Source: Gammaproteobacteria bacterium (lineage in GTDB: Bacteria > Pseudomonadota > Gammaproteobacteria > Eutrophobiales > Eutrophobiaceae). From it: a stretch of DNA of 64,000 nt. Made by a program: the position numbers and the translations under genes. Positions 7,680-57,800 of this stretch are shown in pieces (position 1 is the stretch's first letter; each line of letters opens with the position of its first letter). The notes under the pieces are model-generated. The model saw nothing but the letters and a program-made list of their open reading frames with translations. It did no database searches and was not told where the DNA came from. The DNA is taken from contig OZ220714.1 in assembly GCA_965116585.1 (NCBI GenBank), positions 1,477,088 to 1,541,087 on the forward strand, written 5' to 3'.

Positions 7680-8321
7680 ATGCAGGAAATCCCGGACGTC
7701 CACCAGAAGCTCTCCGCCAGAAAAAAGCCGTCTCAACCCCGTTCCCAGAAGATGGTGAAAGGTATCCTTGATGCAACTCGCAATCTGCTCTGGAAATCCG
7801 GCACCGCTGAAGTATCTCAGATAACAACCAATCACATTGCCAGGGAAGCGAAAATATCGGTTGGTTCACTCTACCAGTATTTCCCGAACAAGGAGGCGAT
7901 CCTGTTCGAATTGTACCGGGAACTCCTGGGACAGGTCACCCTGGTTCTGGAGAAGTTCAAATCCGAGCCCTGCCTGTCATTGCCGCGGGAAGAATTCTTT
8001 GATCGTTTCTACAGGGAAATGAAAGGCGCCGAGGCCGAGAGCAAAGTGATATTTGAAATGCACAATGCCGTGAAAATCTATCCGGCTCTTGCTGAAGCAG
8101 ACCGGCGCCATGCGGAACTGATCGCCCGGGAAATGGCCGGGTTTATGAAACATTTCGGCTCCCGGTGGCCGATGGAAAAACTGCAACGACTCGCGCTGCA
8201 CGCGTATTACGTCAATTACGGGACCTGGATGTATCGTGATCATGTACGTCCTGACTACGGAGAGGTCCTTGACTGGGAGATCAGCGCGCTGAATTTCATG
8301 ATCTCAAGATGCTTTGATTAG
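7680..8321 (+). CDS. TetR/AcrR-family transcriptional regulator
   Basis: N-terminal helix-turn-helix ILDATRNLLWKSGTAEVSQITTNHIAREAKISVGSLYQYFPNKEAILFELY. Divergent from the receptor-amidohydrolase unit. Confidence 0.85.
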   Translation: MQEIPDVHQKLSARKKPSQPRSQKMVKGILDATRNLLWKSGTAEVSQITTNHIAREAKISVGSLYQYFPNKEAILFELYRELLGQVTLVLEKFKSEPCLSLPREEFFDRFYREMKGAEAESKVIFEMHNAVKIYPALAEADRRHAELIAREMAGFMKHFGSRWPMEKLQRLALHAYYVNYGTWMYRDHVRPDYGEVLDWEISALNFMISRCFD

Positions 8322-8362
8322 CCTGGTACTGTTGCAGCAGGCTGGGCGCAACTAATGAGGAG

Positions 8363-9283
8363 TTGAAAACCATGAGAGCGATAATCGCACCTGTCATATT
8401 TTTTCTCATGCTGTTGAGTTCTACAGCATACGCGGATGCAAACAATCTCCGGGTGGAGATGTTCAAGGGGGAGTTTGCCACGGTGAACTCCTTCATTTTT
8501 TCCAACGGCAAGTCCATCATCGTCATGGACGTGCAGCGCAAGACCTTCGAGGCAAAAAAGCTGGTCGAACGCGTCAGGGCCTATAACCTGCCGGTTACCC
8601 ACATCCTGATCACCCACGGCCACACCGACCACTTCACCGGCATGCCCCTGTTCCGGGACGAGTTCCCCGATGCGAAGATCGTGGTAGCCAATGAAGACAT
8701 CCGCAAGGACATCAAGGCGTATGCCATTTACATGGACGGCTTTGGCGCCACTGCTGCTGAGCCGGTGCTGGAACCGCCCCTGAAACCCAAATCAGCCGAT
8801 AACCCGGACGGGTTCGATTATGAAAACACTATCCAACTGCTTGATGAGAACGTCCTGACCCTGGAGGGCGGCGGCGCCCTGGAATTGACTACGGATTACA
8901 AGCCGGCGGAAGCGGACCACATGACTACGGTCTACAGCCCGGAACTCAACGCCATTTTCCTGTCGGATTTCGGCTATAACCGCGTACATCACTGGCAGGG
9001 CGATGACATCAGTTGGCAGGATATCGCCAACTGGCGGGAAGAACTGCTGCGCATCAAACACGAATACGCCGAGCGTAATCCCACCGTCTATCCGGGACAT
9101 GGTGACGTGGGTGACATGGGCATGTTCGATGACATGGTCCAATACATCGACGACTATACCCGTATCGTACAGGCGGCAAAGAACCGGGAAGAGACCATGG
9201 AGAAAATGACTGCGTTATATCCTGACCACGGCGAGGCGGATTTTTTCCTCAAATACAGTATTCATAACCATATTCCGGAATAG
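8363..9283 (+). CDS. Secreted MBL-fold metallo-hydrolase
   Basis: Signal peptide MKTMRAIIAPVIFFLMLLSSTAYA. HxHxDH motif (ILITHGHTDHFTG). GAGGAG RBS upstream. Confidence 0.85.
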   Translation: MKTMRAIIAPVIFFLMLLSSTAYADANNLRVEMFKGEFATVNSFIFSNGKSIIVMDVQRKTFEAKKLVERVRAYNLPVTHILITHGHTDHFTGMPLFRDEFPDAKIVVANEDIRKDIKAYAIYMDGFGATAAEPVLEPPLKPKSADNPDGFDYENTIQLLDENVLTLEGGGALELTTDYKPAEADHMTTVYSPELNAIFLSDFGYNRVHHWQGDDISWQDIANWREELLRIKHEYAERNPTVYPGHGDVGDMGMFDDMVQYIDDYTRIVQAAKNREETMEKMTALYPDHGEADFFLKYSIHNHIPE

Positions 9284-9404
9284 GCCGGTACTAGCAACGG
9301 TTTGTGGTCAGCTCTGCAAAATTTGTCTGTGTATCATCACTCATGAACAAGGTATGACGGCTGAATATCATCCACTTAATGGTTGAACTTCAGCCATTCT
9401 GCTG

Positions 9405-10580
9405 TTATGTGGTTGATTCCAGAGTCGGGGCGATAAATTTACCCAACTCTCGATAAGGAATCAGCCGGTAACGGTCTGTTTCACGGGCTTGATCGCCAGT
9501 ATAGACTACACTGCCCGTCAGGCAGCGGGCGCCAGCCAGGTCTTGAAAATAGCGAATGCCTTTAAGATAGGAATCGTGCCAGGTTTGTGCAGATTTGATC
9601 TCAAACGGCGCCAGTTCCCGGCCTTGTTGCACCAGCAAGTCCAGTTCATTACCGCGGCTGTCCCGAAAGAAAAACAACCTGGGGTCCACGCCACGATTAA
9701 GCAGTGTTTTCAACGCTTCGACCACTACCATGTTTTCGAACAGGTGTCCCTTCAACGGGTCGCGCCGCATCTGTGTTTCGGTTTCAATACCCAGTAACCA
9801 GGCAGCCAACCCGGGATCAACAAAATACAGCTTGGGCGCTTTGATGATGCGTTTACCGAAATTCTCATAATAGGGTTGTAACCTGAAAATAACGAATGAC
9901 GCCTCCAGCACAGACAACCACTCTGCAATAGTGGCCGACGATACCCCCACGTCATTGGCCAGGGAGGACTGGTTCAGCAGTTGGCCCACCCTGCCGGCGC
10001 ACAGGCGCACGAAATTTTCAAATTTCACAAAGTCCTTTAATTGCACGAGTAAGCGTACGTCCCGTTCAATGTAGGTCTGAAAATAGCTGCGATAGAAGTC
10101 CGCAACAGGAATATCCTGAGCATGCTTGCCCGGCATAAACCCGTTCAGGAGCTCCTGCTCCATACTGACCTTTGCCGACCCCAATTCTTCAAAGCTGAGC
10201 GGTAGCAAGGTTAACAGTGCCGCGCGGCCTGCCAGAGACTGTGAAAGCGCCTGGCTGAGTTCAAGCTGGTGGCTGCCGGTCAGGATGAATTGTCCGTTTT
10301 CAGCATCCTCATCAACAATCGTTTGAATGTAAGACACTATCTCCGGTACTCTTTGCACCTCATCGATAATGACTTTGGAACGGTATTCATTGAGGAACGC
10401 GCGCGGGTCATCCCTTGCATAAACCCGCATATCAGGGTTTTCCAATGAGACATAACGGTATGCGGGGAATGCCAGCTTGCACAGCGTCGTCTTCCCGGCC
10501 TGACGCGGCCCGGTCAAACTGACCACCCGGAATAACCTGGACAGGGAGACTGTTTTATTTATGATCTGGCGGTTGAACAA
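9405..10580 (-). CDS. AAA-family ATPase with DUF4143 C-terminal domain
   Basis: Walker A SLTGPRQAGKTTL. Family-typical length (391 aa). TTG start per ORF track. Paralog at 55321..56802. Confidence 0.78.
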   Translation of the reverse strand: MFNRQIINKTVSLSRLFRVVSLTGPRQAGKTTLCKLAFPAYRYVSLENPDMRVYARDDPRAFLNEYRSKVIIDEVQRVPEIVSYIQTIVDEDAENGQFILTGSHQLELSQALSQSLAGRAALLTLLPLSFEELGSAKVSMEQELLNGFMPGKHAQDIPVADFYRSYFQTYIERDVRLLVQLKDFVKFENFVRLCAGRVGQLLNQSSLANDVGVSSATIAEWLSVLEASFVIFRLQPYYENFGKRIIKAPKLYFVDPGLAAWLLGIETETQMRRDPLKGHLFENMVVVEALKTLLNRGVDPRLFFFRDSRGNELDLLVQQGRELAPFEIKSAQTWHDSYLKGIRYFQDLAGARCLTGSVVYTGDQARETDRYRLIPYRELGKFIAPTLESTT

Positions 10581-10587
10581 GGGAGAA

Positions 10588-10640
10588 GGCGGTTTTCGTG
10601 TAATTTTTCAGTTGAACTATAAAATTACACGAAAACCGCC
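10588..10640. promoter_or_regulatory. Perfect 20-bp-arm palindrome (GGCGGTTTTCGTGTAATTTT - tcagttgaactat - AAAATTACACGAAAACCGCC) abutting the start of the DUF4143 ATPase gene
   Basis: Read directly. The loop core CAGTTGAACTAT recurs in the palindrome before the paralog at 55258-55300. Confidence 0.7.
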
Positions 10641-10803
10641 TGAATTACAACCACTGATGTTGATGGTACTCGTATCAAGTACGGGGCAGGCTCTGGATTT
10701 TGGTATCCACGTTTTCCGGCTGGCTTCCAGATAAGTCGATGAAAAGTTTGATGATTATACCATACGGCCCGGTCTTTGTCCAGTCACAAAGTTCACAAAA
10801 AAG

Positions 10804-10838
10804 TTGACTTCTCCCGACATTATCGTATCAACTGATAC
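10804..10838 (+). promoter_or_regulatory. Putative sigma70 promoter (TTGACT…TATCAA) with an overlapping GTATCA-N2-TGATAC inverted repeat upstream of the HupE-like gene
   Basis: -35 TTGACT at 10804-10809. Palindrome at 10825-10838 overlaps the candidate -10. Confidence 0.35.
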
Positions 10839-10855
10839 TACCGGAGCGGGCAATA

Positions 10856-11863
10856 ATGAAACGAGCATTATCATCACTACTTCTCATCGGTTTGTGTTTC
10901 ACGCACGCGCCGGTTGTATTTGCGCATGACGGGCGGCCGCTGTTTATCAACGTCAGTGAGGCCGGCGCGGATTCGGTGCGTCTCAGTTGGAAAGCGCCGC
11001 CCGTAGTCAGCCCGGACAATGCCCCGCTTGTGGCTCTGGCGGGTTGTAACGCATTGCAGCCGTCTCAACCGCAGCCACGCCTGGCGGGAGCGGAGTTGTA
11101 TTCCTGTGCAAACGGTGTGGCCGGGAAATCCCTTGGCATAGATTACCCGCTGTTCAATCCGGCCGTGCCACCTCTGGTACGGGTGGAGTTTGCCAGCGGG
11201 GAAACGCATAGCATCATACTTGAACCCGACGTGACGGAATGGCTGGTCCCGGCGCCGGAGACCTTTGCCGGCGTCATCAAGGACTATTTCGTGCTGGGCA
11301 TGGAACATATCTTCGGTGGCATAGACCACCTGCTGTTCCTGGCCGGCCTGTTGTATATCGCCCGTACCCTGCGCCGGGTTTTAATCACCGTCACCGGCTT
11401 TACCCTGGCCCACTCCGTCACCCTGTTCCTGGTGGCGCTGGACGTGCTGCGCGTCTCCGTCCCTGCCGTGGAAACGGTAATTGCCCTGTCCATCGTCATG
11501 CTTGCCAGCGAAATCGCCCGCAATGATCGCACCACGCTCACCTGGCGTCACCCATTGCTGGTCGCCTGCGGCTTCGGCCTGGTACACGGCGCCGGCTTCG
11601 CCGCCGCGCTGACTGAGACGGGTCTGCCGCAGACGGAGAAGACCAGCGCGCTGCTATTCTTCAACCTGGGTGTGGAAGCCGGCCAACTATGTATTATTGT
11701 TGCACTCTTCACCAGCCTCTGGCTGCTTGCGCGCCTGCCCGGCTCACTGTTGCCCGCTTATGACAACCGGCCGTTGCGCCTGCTGTTCAGTTACGCACTG
11801 GGGATTGTCTCGACGTTCTGGTTTATTGAGCGATTCAGCCTGGTGTTTATACAGGAATATTGA
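10856..11863 (+). CDS. HupE/UreJ-family membrane protein (putative Ni/Co transporter) with an N-terminal periplasmic domain
   Basis: Signal peptide. GMEHIFGGIDHLLFLAGLL His-rich motif. Multiple transmembrane segments. Confidence 0.6.
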   Translation: MKRALSSLLLIGLCFTHAPVVFAHDGRPLFINVSEAGADSVRLSWKAPPVVSPDNAPLVALAGCNALQPSQPQPRLAGAELYSCANGVAGKSLGIDYPLFNPAVPPLVRVEFASGETHSIILEPDVTEWLVPAPETFAGVIKDYFVLGMEHIFGGIDHLLFLAGLLYIARTLRRVLITVTGFTLAHSVTLFLVALDVLRVSVPAVETVIALSIVMLASEIARNDRTTLTWRHPLLVACGFGLVHGAGFAAALTETGLPQTEKTSALLFFNLGVEAGQLCIIVALFTSLWLLARLPGSLLPAYDNRPLRLLFSYALGIVSTFWFIERFSLVFIQEY

Positions 11864-11871
11864 AATGGAGG

Positions 11872-13371
11872 TCAGCGCTGATAAAACGGCGGAAGCTGTG
11901 CGTCATAGTTGATCCACACGGCTTTGGGTGAGGTGTAGTCGTGCAGGCATTCAATACCCATGTCCCTGCCGTAGCCGGATTCGCCCACACCGCCGAAGGG
12001 GGAGGCGGGGTGCACCCGTTTATAGCAGTTCACCCAGACCATACCGGCGCGGATGTTCTCTGAGAACCTGTGGGCGCGTTGCAGGTTATTGGTCCACAAG
12101 CCGCTGCCCAAACCGTAATTCGTTGCATTCGCCAGTTCCAGCGCCTCAGCGTCATCCTTGAAGCGGGTTACGGAGACGAACGGGCCGAATACCTCTTCCT
12201 TGAAAACGGTATCGTCCGGCCCGGCCTCGACGATGGTCGGCTCCAGGTAATAGCCCTTGCTGAGTTCCCCGTCATCCGGTTGTTTGCCGCCACTCAGTAT
12301 GGTATTGCCCTCCCTGCGGCAAGTCTCAAGGTAGTTGAGCACCCGCTCCAGGTGCATTTTCGAGGTGAGCGGACCCATCTCGGTAGCGGGGTCCAGCGGG
12401 TTGCCCAGCCTGATGGACCTGGCCAGGGCAACGAATTTTTCCAGGAACTGATCGGCGATGGCCTCGTGCAACAGCAGGCGGGAACCGGCGATACAGGCCT
12501 GACCCTGGTTATGGAAGATGGCGAAGGCCGAACCGCCGACGGCCGCGGGCAGGGTGGCGTCCTCGAACACGATATTGGGGCCTTTGCCCCCCATCTCCAG
12601 GGAGACCCGCTTCAGGTTCCCCGCAGAAGCCTGCACGATCTTGCGGCCGGTCGCGGTGGAACCGGTAAAAGCGATCTTGTCTATGTCCGGGTGTTCGGCA
12701 ATATGCTGGCCGGCAGTGTGGCCGTAGCCGGGGACGATGTTCACGACTCCCGGTGGAAAGCCCACCTCATGCATGAGGTCCACCAGCCTGAGCGTGGACA
12801 ACGGCGTGATTTCAGAAGGCTTCATCACCACGGTATTACCGGCGGCCAGGGCCGGACCCAGTTTCCAGCTACAGAACATGATGGGGAAGTTCCAGGGCAC
12901 GATCTGCCCCACCACCCCGACCGGCTTGCGCTTCACGATGCTCAGGAAGCCCGGTTCTACCGGCACTTCCCGACCGTCTATCTTGTCGGCAATGCCGCCG
13001 AAGTAACGCAGGTTGAGCAGAGTCCGGGGCAGGTCCAGGCGCCGGGTATCCTTCAGGGGGTGGCCGGTGTCCAGGCTTTCAAGCTCCGTGAACTCATCAA
13101 AATGTTGCTCCAGTTTGTCTGCCAGTTTCATGATGAGCCGCCCCCGTTCGGAGGCAAAGGTGCTGCTCCAGTCATGAAACGCAGCCCGCGCCGCGGCAAC
13201 CGCCTGGTCCACGTCCGCCGGCCCGGCCCCGGCAATGCGGGTAATCAAGCTACCATCATGGGGGTTGATGACGTCGATAACACTGCCGTCTGCCGCGTCC
13301 ACAAACTCGCCGTTAATGAACAACTGGTTGCGGATGTTTTCGGGTTTTACGGTAAGGGCTTTATCGGGCAT
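11872..13371 (-). CDS. NAD(P)+-dependent aldehyde dehydrogenase
   Basis: ALDH motifs ELGGKGPNIVF and catalytic Cys in GQACIAGSRLL. Likely start MPDKALTV (ATG at 13369-13371); the ORF track extends to an upstream TTG. Confidence 0.9.
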   Translation of the reverse strand: MPDKALTVKPENIRNQLFINGEFVDAADGSVIDVINPHDGSLITRIAGAGPADVDQAVAAARAAFHDWSSTFASERGRLIMKLADKLEQHFDEFTELESLDTGHPLKDTRRLDLPRTLLNLRYFGGIADKIDGREVPVEPGFLSIVKRKPVGVVGQIVPWNFPIMFCSWKLGPALAAGNTVVMKPSEITPLSTLRLVDLMHEVGFPPGVVNIVPGYGHTAGQHIAEHPDIDKIAFTGSTATGRKIVQASAGNLKRVSLEMGGKGPNIVFEDATLPAAVGGSAFAIFHNQGQACIAGSRLLLHEAIADQFLEKFVALARSIRLGNPLDPATEMGPLTSKMHLERVLNYLETCRREGNTILSGGKQPDDGELSKGYYLEPTIVEAGPDDTVFKEEVFGPFVSVTRFKDDAEALELANATNYGLGSGLWTNNLQRAHRFSENIRAGMVWVNCYKRVHPASPFGGVGESGYGRDMGIECLHDYTSPKAVWINYDAQLPPFYQR

Positions 13372-13513
13372 GGTAAGTTGATATGCGCTGCCCTGAACAG
13401 CACACAAGCATGACTTCGGTCACAGGTTAAATGCAGCGTGATAGTAGCAGAACTATTGAAATACAGCAATAATGGCGGGAGAATGGGTGTTTCATAATGG
13501 GGAGGGGTAAATC

Positions 13514-55079: not shown

Positions 55080-55257
55080 TTGGTTGTACCTCCAAACTCT
55101 CATGCTCAGGGTTCTGAGCTCTCCGACGAAATGCAACTCGGGACAGAATGTGTCCGTCCCCTGATTCCATTAGCAAGCTACGCATGCAATCCAGGGGGAT
55201 TGTAGCGTATTCCAACCTGTATTTCTCACAGACTCAACACTTGACTCCGGCTTGGTT

Positions 55258-55300
55258 ATATTAGGATAATTCAAAATCACAGTTTGAACTATCCTAATAT
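55258..55300. promoter_or_regulatory. 11-bp-arm palindrome ATATTAGGATA…TATCCTAATAT with loop core CAGTTTGAACTAT, 20 nt upstream of the second DUF4143 ATPase gene
   Basis: Read directly. The loop core matches that of the palindrome at 10588-10640 (CAGTTGAACTAT). Confidence 0.65.
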
Positions 55301-55320
55301 TACTGGTAGAGTCCAAGGTT

Positions 55321-56802
55321 ATGATCTATCGCGACCTGACTCTGGAAATAATCAAGGCAGCAACCCGGGCGCCAGCCATAACGCTGACGGGACCCAGGCA
55401 GAGTGGCAAGACGTTGTTATGCAGGGCACTATTTCCAGACCACCCGTACAGAACGCTTGAGGACCCTGACCAGCGCGCGTTTGCACTGGAGGACCCTCGA
55501 ACATTTCTGGCGCAATTTCCAGATGGCGCAGTCATTGACGAGGTGCAACGCGTACCCGGACTGCTATCGTATCTACAGGGTATCATCGATAACAACCCTG
55601 TGCCCGGACGTTGGATACTCAGCGGTTCACAAAATTTGTCCTTGCTGGAATCAATCAGCCAGTCACTGGCAGGACGAACCGAGGTGCACCAGCTATTACC
55701 ACTGACCTGGAGTGAGATCAGTCGCTTCGCCAAGTACCCCAAACGCCTTGAAGATATCCTGTTCAGCGGTGGCTATCCCCGCATATTCGATCGTGAGCTT
55801 GAGCCATCTGCCTGGTTACGCTCCTATGTCGCCACTTATCTTGAACGGGACGTTCGAATGCTGGGTAACGTGGGAGACCTGGTGACATTTCAACGCTTCG
55901 TCGAGCTATGTGCCGGCCGCACCGGACAACTGCTGAACTATTCCTCCCTGGCCAACGATTGCGGCATTTCCCAACCGACCGCAAAAACCTGGTTCAGCAT
56001 TCTGGAGGCCAGTTTTATTGCTTTCCGCCTGCCTTCGTTCAGCTTCAGATTACGTAAACGTCTGGTAAAGATGCCAAAGTTGTATTTTTACGATACCGGA
56101 CTGGTCTGCTGGCTACTGGGAATCCGTGAAGCGCAACAACTCCTCACACATCCTCTACGCGGCGCCATTTTCGAGACCTGGATCACATCGGAAATCCTGA
56201 AACATCGTACCAATCAGGGCGAAACCCGAGGACTTTCATTCTATCGGGACAGCAACGGCGCCGAAGTTGATCTTGTTATTGAACAGCCTGATGGTATAAC
56301 GCTGCTCGAGGCCAAATCCTCCGCAACCCCGGCAAAAAGATTGTTTGACAGTGTCAGGCGAGTGCAACGGCATTTCCCCGATGCGCCATTGCCGGAATTG
56401 ACGGTAGTTTACGGTGGCGAGGAATTTCAACAGCGTGCAGAAGGCCGGCTGATACCGTGGCGGATGCTGCGTGCAACGGCGCTGCCTGATGCCGGCGCCA
56501 TCGTGCGGGTCAGTTCGGGAGGGCATCCGCTCGCGTCTGCCGACATACTTGCGTTATTCCCAAACAAAACCTTCAAGTCCGCACAGACAGATGAACACGG
56601 CGAGGCGAGACTTGATTTGCATTCCCTTCATCTTCCAATGACGGTGTTCGTGACTGCCAACGGGTTCAGGGCACACTTGCAGCAGAACTGGGTGCCCGCC
56701 GAGCAGATACTGCATATCAATCTAGCTCCGCTTCAGAGTGGGGGGTCGGTAATTTTTCCAAATAATTTTACTATGATCGCCTCAAGAAATCCGAGCATAT
56801 GA
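55321..56802 (+). CDS. AAA-family ATPase with DUF4143 domain (paralog of 9405..10580) and a ~100-aa C-terminal extension
   Basis: Walker A ITLTGPRQSGKTLL. Alignable with the first paralog over ~390 aa. Confidence 0.8.
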   Translation: MIYRDLTLEIIKAATRAPAITLTGPRQSGKTLLCRALFPDHPYRTLEDPDQRAFALEDPRTFLAQFPDGAVIDEVQRVPGLLSYLQGIIDNNPVPGRWILSGSQNLSLLESISQSLAGRTEVHQLLPLTWSEISRFAKYPKRLEDILFSGGYPRIFDRELEPSAWLRSYVATYLERDVRMLGNVGDLVTFQRFVELCAGRTGQLLNYSSLANDCGISQPTAKTWFSILEASFIAFRLPSFSFRLRKRLVKMPKLYFYDTGLVCWLLGIREAQQLLTHPLRGAIFETWITSEILKHRTNQGETRGLSFYRDSNGAEVDLVIEQPDGITLLEAKSSATPAKRLFDSVRRVQRHFPDAPLPELTVVYGGEEFQQRAEGRLIPWRMLRATALPDAGAIVRVSSGGHPLASADILALFPNKTFKSAQTDEHGEARLDLHSLHLPMTVFVTANGFRAHLQQNWVPAEQILHINLAPLQSGGSVIFPNNFTMIASRNPSI

Positions 56803-56810
56803 ACATTTGG

Positions 56811-57800
56811 CTATTGACCGGAGAGCGTTGATTCTCTTATCGGAAGCGTCTCGAGCAGGCGTTCCGTTTCCTGAACCAGCTCATTGACTATTTCACCGGC
56901 TGGTTTGATTGAATCCACACTGCCCACGCTTTGTCCGGCGTACTGGGCCATGGCTTCAACATTCCCGATGCTGCCGACAAGAGGAGAAAATACGCTGAAA
57001 CGGGGGACATCTATGGTATTACCACCCAGTTGTATCTCCCCCACTATACCGTCTTCACTGGCTTTGGCCGCTGCCAGGGATTGTTTCAATACCCGGTGCG
57101 GCGCATCGGGCCACATGACCGAGAAGCGATCGGTGTACACTGCATCTTCACTTTTTGCATTCAGGAGATTCTGGATATATTGCGGGTGATAACCGGATTC
57201 AGGCGTGGCGACGAAACGTGTGCCCATGCGCACCGCGCCGGCGCCGGCAGCCAGCGCGGCGGCGATCCCGGACGCGTTGGCAATGCCCCCTGCGGCAATA
57301 ACCGGGGTCTGCACTTGTTCCAGGACATTTTCCAGTATGGGCAACAGGGAAACCGTGCCTCTGACGTGCCCCCCGGCCTCGAATCCTTGCACGATGACAA
57401 AATCACACCTGGCCTCAACAGCCGATACGGCTTCATCAACACCGCCGACCTGCCAAGCAGCCAGCGCCTTGCCTGCATGGACCTGTTTAACCAGATCACT
57501 ATCCGGGTCTCCATAGAAAAACTCCACAACACGGCAGCGCCGGGCGGCTATGTCAATGACGCTCCTGTCCTCCAGGAACGGAATAAGAAAATTGATACCC
57601 AGACATCCTGGAGAAACGTCGCCAATTTCGTCCAGCGTGGTTTCCAGGGTCGCCGGAGACAATAACGTGCCGCTCAGCATACCCAAAGCGCCAGCCCTGG
57701 CGACAGCAGCCCCCAACGCCGGTGATGCCGTACCCATGCCCGCGTTCTGGATAGGATGTCGGCAGCCGACCAGTTCAGTGAATGCTGTGGTTATTGTCAA
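56811..57800 (-). CDS. Nitronate monooxygenase / 2-nitropropane dioxygenase-family FMN enzyme
   Basis: N-terminus LVGCRHPIQNAGMGTAS. TIM-barrel FMN-binding motifs. Confidence 0.85.
   Translation of the reverse strand: MTITTAFTELVGCRHPIQNAGMGTASPALGAAVARAGALGMLSGTLLSPATLETTLDEIGDVSPGCLGINFLIPFLEDRSVIDIAARRCRVVEFFYGDPDSDLVKQVHAGKALAAWQVGGVDEAVSAVEARCDFVIVQGFEAGGHVRGTVSLLPILENVLEQVQTPVIAAGGIANASGIAAALAAGAGAVRMGTRFVATPESGYHPQYIQNLLNAKSEDAVYTDRFSVMWPDAPHRVLKQSLAAAKASEDGIVGEIQLGGNTIDVPRFSVFSPLVGSIGNVEAMAQYAGQSVGSVDSIKPAGEIVNELVQETERLLETLPIRESTLSGQ

Follow-up and report, generated by a model that had tools for sequence, protein, structure and literature searches.

The C-boxes of restriction-modification controller proteins (C.PvuII, C.AhdI and C.Esp1396I) are palindromic operators, and at least the pvuIIC transcripts are leaderless. 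This circuit appears to be the closest known analogue of the arrangement described here, which consists of a long inverted repeat (dyad) directly before each of two paralogous DUF4143 ATPase genes, gene A and gene B, in a 64,000-nucleotide stretch of gammaproteobacterial DNA (contig OZ220714.1), the whole of which is called the window below. As with C-boxes, a palindromic putative operator lies directly upstream of, and overlaps, the promoter of a mobile defence-related gene, and the layout is predicted to be leaderless in part of the family. The binder, here a candidate, would again be encoded by the regulated unit, and the circuit would serve to control a nuclease after transfer to a new host. 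However, C-box systems employ a small dedicated helix-turn-helix (HTH) protein and two adjacent dyads of the GACT...AGTC type, and they combine activation with repression. The DUF4143 site is instead one long dyad, occasionally two, made of AAGTT-N-AACTT and outer A/T-rich blocks; its unit has no separate regulator gene, and the candidate binder is an ATPase-nuclease of about 390 amino acids (aa).

Two other classes of systems bear comparison. The operators of toxin-antitoxin loci, with HTH or ribbon-helix-helix antitoxins, and those of BrxR/CapW-type defence loci are autoregulated. They share with the DUF4143 dyad the placement of inverted repeats over the -35 and -10 boxes of a mobile, potentially toxic locus, and negative feedback, which is proposed here for DUF4143. 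They differ from it in possessing a separate regulator or antitoxin and, usually, shorter arms, and conservation across phyla is not typical of them. Archaeal Orc1/Cdc6 with its origin recognition box (ORB) elements is the other case, as an AAA+ protein with a C-terminal winged helix has dyad sites directly upstream of its own gene; for the DUF4143 protein such binding is predicted. The function of ORB elements is in replication, where they lie on either side of an unwinding element, whereas nothing at the DUF4143 loci suggests an origin. The similarity of fold is of a kind common to AAA+ proteins in general (template modelling (TM) score about 0.25), and the DUF4143 protein adds a PD-(D/E)XK nuclease.

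Both window proteins match the PADLOC PDC-S01 models, with E values of about 1e-100. PDC-S01 is described as a fusion of an ATPase with a PD-(D/E)XK domain and is listed as a single-gene phage defence candidate whose validation is pending; it is among the most abundant candidate systems, with reported counts of 29,494 in bacteria and 9,986 in archaea, and is reported to rank fourth among the defence entries of prokaryotes (PMC12988326). In rumen genomes, no other individual locus was reported as often (PMC13356809). Literature searches on DUF4143, COG1373, PDC-S01 and the Pfam accessions, the latter returning mostly noise, yielded no description of an upstream palindrome, an operator or a leaderless layout.

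The dyad is family-wide, measures about 35-41 bp and is specific to DUF4143 (PDC-S01) genes. With a probability that we put at roughly 0.55, each palindrome is a duplex DNA operator in the core promoter of its DUF4143 gene, likely autorepressing and carried as a portable cassette. The dyad represents a concrete candidate DNA ligand for the protein of a very common and mechanistically obscure candidate defence family.

Two palindromes and a family-wide dyad

Palindrome A has arms of 27 nucleotides (nt) according to the repeat finder (10587-10613 and 10615-10641), which are 93% complementary around one central base, G10614. The outer 20 nt on each side pair perfectly (GGCGGTTTTCGTGTAATTTT at 10589-10608 and AAAATTACACGAAAACCGCC at 10622-10641, flanking TCAGTTGAACTAT), and the symmetry extends inward past these perfect arms up to the central base. 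In palindrome B, two 21-nt arms (55255-55275 and 55283-55303) are 90% complementary and stand 7 nt apart; they include the shorter arms noticed before, ATATTAGGATA and TATCCTAATAT. A sequence-only reading of the window had placed a palindrome beside the start of each of the two paralogs, with the genes on opposite strands, and both statements are confirmed (Table 1). Proteins A and B are 43% identical and both match AAA_14 plus DUF4143. Their arm sequences differ although both reside in one genome, as is expected of insulated paralogous regulators. No further copy of either palindrome or of a half-site was found in the window, so the palindromes are not a repeat family within it.

The distribution of the dyad was surveyed in 162 DUF4143 homologs. 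The A-type set comprised 80 genome loci with 48-64% identity to A, drawn from Chlamydiota, Bacteroidota, Verrucomicrobiota, Latescibacterota, Spirochaetota, Clostridia, Gammaproteobacteria and others; the B-type set comprised 80 metagenome loci, 45-72% identical to B. The dyad score was defined as the number of complementary pairs among 20 positions either side of the axis, with a threshold of 15/20. This threshold is reached or exceeded in the region before the gene in 46% of the 162 homologs, compared with 0.38% of 6378 control windows from the homolog loci and 2.1% of 188 upstream regions of neighbouring genes. The motif AGTT-N-AACT, with at most one mismatch, is present in the 150 nt upstream of the gene in 58 of 83 A-type loci, against 0.05 expected per 150 nt from the rest of the loci. 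The common consensus is ttTRTRCAAATnnnAAGTT-N-AACTTnnnATTTGYAYAaa. Outer arms also occur as the variants GGATAATC (as in B), CCGGCTAAT and GACTAAAAT, and B-type relatives carry GGACAAATTGTAAATC-N-GATTGACAATTTGTCC. The proposal of a cis element specific to this ATPase family, made from the window alone, is supported by these frequencies and by the retention of the element in orthologs and in the majority of some 160 homologs of many phyla.

The extent of the dyad was measured with the axis chosen on alternate positions, which avoids circularity. Counting from the axis, the arms are more often complementary than independence would allow at positions 5-17, and by position 23 the excess has fallen to background. 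At position 6 the observed value is 0.66 (0.28 expected if the arms were independent), at position 13 it is 0.89 (0.41) and at position 16 it is 0.78 (0.30). The best symmetry axis is a single base in 74 of the 83 A-type loci, and the centre there is usually the conserved palindrome AAGTT-N-AACTT. The picture of a stem that presents a fixed loop is not supported, since the symmetry runs through the centre with one unpaired base in most loci. Plasmid-borne distant homologs (31-47% identity) include one of Treponema succinifaciens with a dyad of 19/20 and those of Thiothrix and Allochromatium with weaker dyads.

In some homologs (L014, L020, L062 and L078) two tandem dyads are found 50-70 nt apart, with axes separated by 63 nt in L020, an arrangement that recalls paired operators.

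The gene and its palindrome are inherited as one unit. Orthologs of gene A (91-93% protein identity) were found in metagenomic contigs with differing neighbours: the gene follows an aldehyde dehydrogenase gene in L001 and L002, and it is accompanied by a TonB-dependent receptor and an S8 peptidase in L003 and by an MBL-fold gene and hupE in the window. In a four-way DNA alignment of these loci, similarity runs from TTTTCGTGTAATTTT in the left arm to the stop codon, and the flanks are unalignable. Within this unit, 38 of 39 bases of the inner palindrome are invariant, against about 10% difference in the coding sequence; judged from this alignment, the inner part is under sequence constraint. 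The outermost arms vary by lineage, being GGCGG/CCGCC in the window, GGTAG/CTGTC in L003 and unpaired in L001. Orthologs of gene B at 93, 83, 75 and 71% identity occupy unrelated neighbourhoods and keep AGGATAATTCAAA-N7-TTTGAATTATCCT, a TAnnnT box 17 nt past TTGAAT, and then ATG after 8 nt. The palindromes are thus present upstream of close orthologs of both genes. Since close orthologs are alike only from the palindrome, or a point just upstream of it, as far as the stop codon, the gene must move together with its palindrome. The conserved unit holds a single gene, with no second gene included.

A recombinogenic role had also been suggested for the site. The half-site of each locus is not enriched within 150 nt 3' of its stop codon (mean best match 9.88 of 17 in 89 loci, 9.81 in controls), and the neighbourhoods of A and B orthologs contain no conserved recombinase gene. 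With no second copy at the 3' end of the unit, such a role is unsupported and seems unlikely. Transposon terminal inverted repeats and an attC-like site were rejected for the same two reasons, namely no related site at the 3' end and no linked recombinase. The sequence GAAGTTCAACC at 9380-9390, about 17 nt past the stop of gene A, resembles the dyad core and is probably there by chance, given the missing downstream enrichment in the 89 loci.

The string CAGTT(T)GAACTAT had been taken as a conserved core common to A and B. The window has exactly two copies of it (10609-10620 and 55280-55292), with no match in 100 shuffles, a test that is post hoc as the pattern was chosen by eye. Both copies lie on the plus strand and the genes on opposite strands, so the orientation of the core is inverted relative to genes A and B. 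In A the string sits on the dyad axis, whereas in B it lies at +1 to +13 from the axis, covering the loop edge and the right arm and carrying the -35 box. The equivalent sequence in B orthologs is TTTGAATTAT after a variable N7, and the counterparts of CAGTTTGAACTAT in these orthologs read ACATTTTGAATTGT, AGAGTTTGAATTAT, ACAGTTTTAATTAG or TAAATTTGAATTAG. The match of B to A needs a T-to-C change seen in the window alone (GAACTAT, where the ortholog consensus is GAATTAT) plus the CAG of the variable centre. The shared 12/13-mer appears to be partly coincidental, with copies that are not positionally homologous and a string that is not kept in B orthologs. What A and B truly share is membership in one family of promoter-proximal dyads, rather than the string. 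A reading that attributes the resemblance of A and B to chance and regards the palindromes as neutral quasi-palindromes draws on this coincidence and is valid solely for the 13-mer that the two loci have exactly in common. As regards the palindromes, it is refuted by an enrichment of about 20-fold to 100-fold over controls and by an element that stays invariant among orthologs whose flanks are replaced, and we give it next to no credence.

Probable action at the DNA level and promoter register

The two arms evolve in concert. Across 38 phylogenetically independent homolog pairs, 107 compensatory double changes were counted, compared with about 15 expected, together with 77 single changes and 22 non-complementary double changes. 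The compensatory evolution that had been suspected from the two loci of the window is therefore a feature of the family. This concerted change also provides a clean natural data set on the maintenance of long palindromes. Arm mismatches on the sense strand, taken across the family, are of the G:T type in 75 cases and of the A:C type in 88, with no G:U bias. A stem transcribed from either strand would skew these mismatches strongly, so the lack of skew is evidence against an RNA stem. The single-base axis with its conserved palindromic tip does not have the geometry of a hairpin loop, and most transcripts are predicted to lack the left arm, since the -35 and -10 boxes lie inside the dyad. Rfam 15 contains no family that matches at the gathering score, only generic hairpins of the miRNA type below the threshold. 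Taken together, these observations point to an element acting at the DNA level and not as an RNA stem-loop.

The predicted promoter boxes favour certain registers relative to the dyad. In 73 of 82 loci, the best sigma-70-like match and the dyad overlap. The -35 box has three preferred starting points relative to the axis, namely +3 to +5 (31 loci), -2 (8 loci) and -18 to -16 (10 loci). When no best promoter is selected, 43 of 126 loci have a TAnnnT whose last base precedes the start codon by 6 nt (31 loci) or 7 nt (12 loci), where the background is about 4-5 per offset. The peak of TTGnnn, with 24 of the 126 loci, lies 29 nt ahead of the start codon, and a Shine-Dalgarno (SD)-like tetramer is found in 27 of the 126, compared with 10% at random positions. 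About one third of the family genes look leaderless on this basis, and both the overlap of the boxes with the dyad and the leaderless layout are inferred from consensus matches and spacing. A practical consequence would be an annotation rule by which the true start codon of many members is sought 6-8 nt after the -10 box.

Gene B conforms to this layout. Its boxes and their spacing are kept in L164-L167 (Table 1), and the best-promoter scan places the -35 boxes of L164 and L165 in the same register as that of gene B. The ATG (55321) follows only 8 nt after the -10 box, so the gene B mRNA is predicted to be leaderless or nearly so. Gene A is arranged differently. Its TTG start (10578-10580) lies 7 nt beyond the palindrome, with no SD sequence and no room for one. 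The TAATTT in the left arm of palindrome A predicts a transcription start near the dyad centre, and a TTGnnn 16-17 nt upstream of it is supplied by each of three unrelated gene A flanks. The TTG start is kept in all close orthologs (L001-L003, 4001-4003) and is unusual, as 115 of 126 family members use ATG.

It is at locus A that a role of RNA finds its best arguments. The palindrome, once transcribed, would form a hairpin in the 5' untranslated region and hide the ribosome-binding region, as had been proposed from the window. The predicted hairpin A is very stable (-42.5 kcal/mol, z = -9.3) and would end 7 nt before the TTG, leaving no space for an SD sequence. A strong promoter-like site also lies 110 nt upstream of palindrome A, and a read-through transcript from it would be translationally blocked, so that such a block is possible at this locus alone. 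As an account of the family, an RNA hairpin that occludes the ribosome-binding site is hardly credible. It meets the missing excess of G:U-type mismatches and the single central base with its palindromic tip, the scarcity of SD sequences, the opposite orientation of the core relative to genes A and B, and the lack of an Rfam match. Promoter boxes inside or just after the dyad, with start codons 6-8 nt past the -10 box, would moreover leave the left arm outside the mRNA.

An intrinsic terminator was rejected, as the stem has its T-run on the wrong side and a terminator scan found none at the site.

Candidate binders of the dyad

In the operator reading that we prefer, which is also the best reading of the autoregulation suggested from the window, promoter, operator and gene would form one compact cassette that is inherited and transferred jointly. 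By binding the dyad, a symmetric oligomer would mask one of the two promoter boxes (-35 or -10) or the transcription start and thereby block RNA polymerase. We infer the identity of this binder and the outcome of repression: the likeliest binder would be the gene's own product, acting through a winged HTH domain. Negative autoregulation of this kind would hold a potentially toxic AAA+/PD-(D/E)XK nuclease at a low level independently of the host, and a promoter-embedded dyad would explain how a single gene of this type can be expressed safely after horizontal transfer. If the protein does bind its own dyad, the dyads would also define an expression cassette that is self-contained, in many cases leaderless, and functional in different phyla. 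Family genes cloned with "150 bp of native promoter" also carry the putative operator.

The AlphaFold model of protein A (confidence score pLDDT, 89.9) consists of an AAA+ domain (residues 1-135), a helical linker, a winged HTH (184-253) and a PD-(D/E)XK domain (277-383). The recognition helix of the modelled winged helix comprises residues 215-227 within the HTH segment LANDVGVSSATIAEWLSVLE. Among 20 homologs, E282, D307, E312, D314, E327 and K329 of the nuclease part are invariant, and so is the wing motif GKRxxKxPK with its basic residues (G242, K243, R244, K247 and K250). DUF4143 has been classed as a PD-(D/E)XK fold (PMC3424549). Searches of PDB sequences and of NCBIfam gave no match for the proteins. 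By structure, Foldseek relates the nuclease part to Can2 and the protein to a Walker ATPase of Pyrococcus abyssi (2qen, TM 0.44-0.48); it also matches STAND and clamp-loader ATPases (Apaf-1, MalT, RFC) and Orc1/Cdc6 on origin DNA (2qby).

On this model, binding of the dyad by the DUF4143 protein itself is plausible. Divergence of the operator arms tracks that of the protein, with rho 0.74 for the whole and 0.75 when the winged-helix segment is taken alone, and comparison by eye of recognition helices with arms gives mixed signals. The more specific claim, that the DUF4143/PDC-S01 protein is itself a sequence- or structure-specific DNA binder and that each copy has its cognate site in its own promoter, is put forward tentatively. 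If true, the dyads would constitute a natural catalogue of the DNA-recognition code of a very abundant, uncharacterised candidate defence family. In a stronger version the protein would recognise an extruded cruciform, which would tie its nuclease domain to the sensing of four-way or hairpin DNA.

Several points weigh against an autorepressing operator read by the winged helix. The winged helix could be a structural piece of a STAND/ORC-type ATPase module, not a DNA reader. The mutual-information scan between protein and operator is dominated by alignment artefacts and gappy C-terminal columns, and the partial correlation of winged-helix with operator divergence is rho 0.21 (p = 0.15). Near-identical recognition helices (SSHTVKEW) occur with very different GC-rich outer arms that are perfectly complementary; members sharing nearly the same HTH carry CCCGGCAG, CCGGCTAA and GGCGGTTTT. 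A simple model in which the helix reads the arm does not predict this, and it fits structure-based or mutational homogenisation of the arms. Possible explanations are that another part of the protein reads the outer arms, that a cruciform is functional, or that replication templates are switched. The promoter calls are consensus matches with conserved spacing, and many of the hosts are not Proteobacteria. At gene A the layout appears atypical for the family, as its internal promoter candidate is weak and its TTG start has no SD sequence before it, and the upstream site at 10754-10782, if active, would transcribe the entire palindrome. The dyad is missing from some distant homologs; those of Rhizobium and Ruminococcus albus carry direct repeats instead, and that of Azotobacter has nothing obvious at this place. 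The direct repeats suggest a putative change of binding-site architecture. In the plasmid of Rhizobium sp. CB3090 (L172, 250-343), TTGA(A/C)TTTCAAT(T/C)GGTCA occurs twice with a partial third copy, GTTTCAAACGGTCA; in pRUMAL01 of Ruminococcus albus (L170, 310-400) the repeats read TTTGAATT(G/A)CA.

The dyad may instead be the operator of a regulator encoded elsewhere, a factor of the host or of a mobile element; a structural winged helix would suit this, and the co-variation tests between protein and operator, none of which is significant, agree with it. Against it stands the retention of the element in Chlamydiota, Bacteroidota, Verrucomicrobiota, Spirochaetota, Clostridia, Gammaproteobacteria and others. 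The element accompanies the gene into unrelated neighbourhoods, in a conserved unit without a second gene, and its arms diverge with the protein. We judge this explanation to be quite unlikely. Boxes of LexA or of another host global regulator were rejected in particular. SOS boxes differ between phyla, and the element is kept across phyla with differing SOS boxes and moves with the gene.

The arm data also bear on folded DNA, that is a cruciform or single-strand hairpin extruded at the promoter and recognised by the ATPase-nuclease or by other structure-specific proteins, with suggested roles in regulation, as a self-DNA signal or as a site for moving the one-gene cassette. Co-variation of the arms is strong even among close relatives, the high-entropy positions 6, 7 and 16 remain complementary, and the GC-rich outer arms are unrelated despite nearly the same HTH. 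Mismatches without strand bias suit a cruciform as well as a duplex. The protein has an apparently intact PD-(D/E)XK nuclease, as predicted, and the boundary of the unit coincides with the palindrome. However, conservation in the centre and in the A/T-rich blocks extends to the sequence and is not limited to pairing, and the position relative to the start codon is quantised as promoter registers predict. No half-site copy exists at the 3' end, and no recombinase is linked to the unit. Template switching during replication can homogenise the arms of quasi-palindromes, with no need of selection for structure, and it could also explain the arm homogenisation seen here. Folded DNA is, on balance, an unlikely explanation.

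Features and neighbourhoods of the two genes

Table 1. Coordinates of the two DUF4143 loci in the window (positions count from its first letter).
Feature	Position	Strand	Remarks
Palindrome A	10587..10641	none	sole such site in the window
Ortholog-invariant part of palindrome A, TTTTCGTGTAATTTTATAGTTCAACTKAAAAATTACACG	10597..10635	-	one variable base; same in window, L001, L002 and L003; coding about 10% different, flanks unrelated
Central core AGTT-G-AACT of the A-subfamily dyad	10610..10618	none	within the core named earlier, CAGTTGAACTAT (10609-10620); family consensus AAGTT-N-AACTT
Gene A, AAA_14 + DUF4143, PADLOC candidate PDC-S01	9405..10580	-	391 aa, TTG start; profile matches
Candidate gene A promoter	10622..10650	-	TTGTAA (10650-10645), 17 nt, TAATTT (10627-10622, left arm); suggested by three unrelated flanks
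Sigma-70-like TGGACA-17-TATAAT with TG	10754..10782	-	11/12 matches; non-conserved flank, 110 nt further upstream, directed at gene A
Palindrome B	55255..55303	none	21-nt arms, axis A55279
Ortholog-conserved part of palindrome B, AGGATAATTCAAA - N7 - TTTGAA(C/T)TATCCT	55263..55295	none	ortholog comparison
Core named earlier in B, CAGTTTGAACTAT	55280..55292	+	covers variable centre (CAG) and right arm
Predicted gene B promoter	55284..55312	+	-35 TTGAAC (55284-55289, in right arm and core), 17 nt, -10 TAGAGT (55307-55312); boxes and spacing kept in L164-L167
Gene B, AAA_14 + DUF4143 (PDC-S01)	55321..56802	+	493 aa; profile matches

Gene B is truncated at its C-terminus, with 493 aa compared with 559-572 aa (about 565) in its orthologs. 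The similarity fades shortly past "...VIFP", and the tail "...IASRNPSI*" may echo "AGRLNPIRD" of the orthologs. Its stop lies 8 nt from the stop of a convergent gene resembling nitronate monooxygenase (56811-57800). The C-terminal extension of about 180 aa that marks the gene B subfamily has no match in Pfam.

In the neighbourhood of gene A, hupE-like and aldehyde dehydrogenase genes are present both in the window (7680-13407) and in L001/L002, in differing order and relative orientation, which indicates local rearrangement around the cassette.

An exact look-up of genes A and B in a gene-position index returned no record, and no relatives were found among IMG/VR viral contigs with the patterns used. 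In PLSDB, 185 plasmids encode relatives of gene A, including 38 of Rhizobium, 30 of Moraxella, 16 of Agrobacterium and 13 of Thermus; these plasmid-bearing relatives offer cultured hosts that are suited to testing the putative operator.

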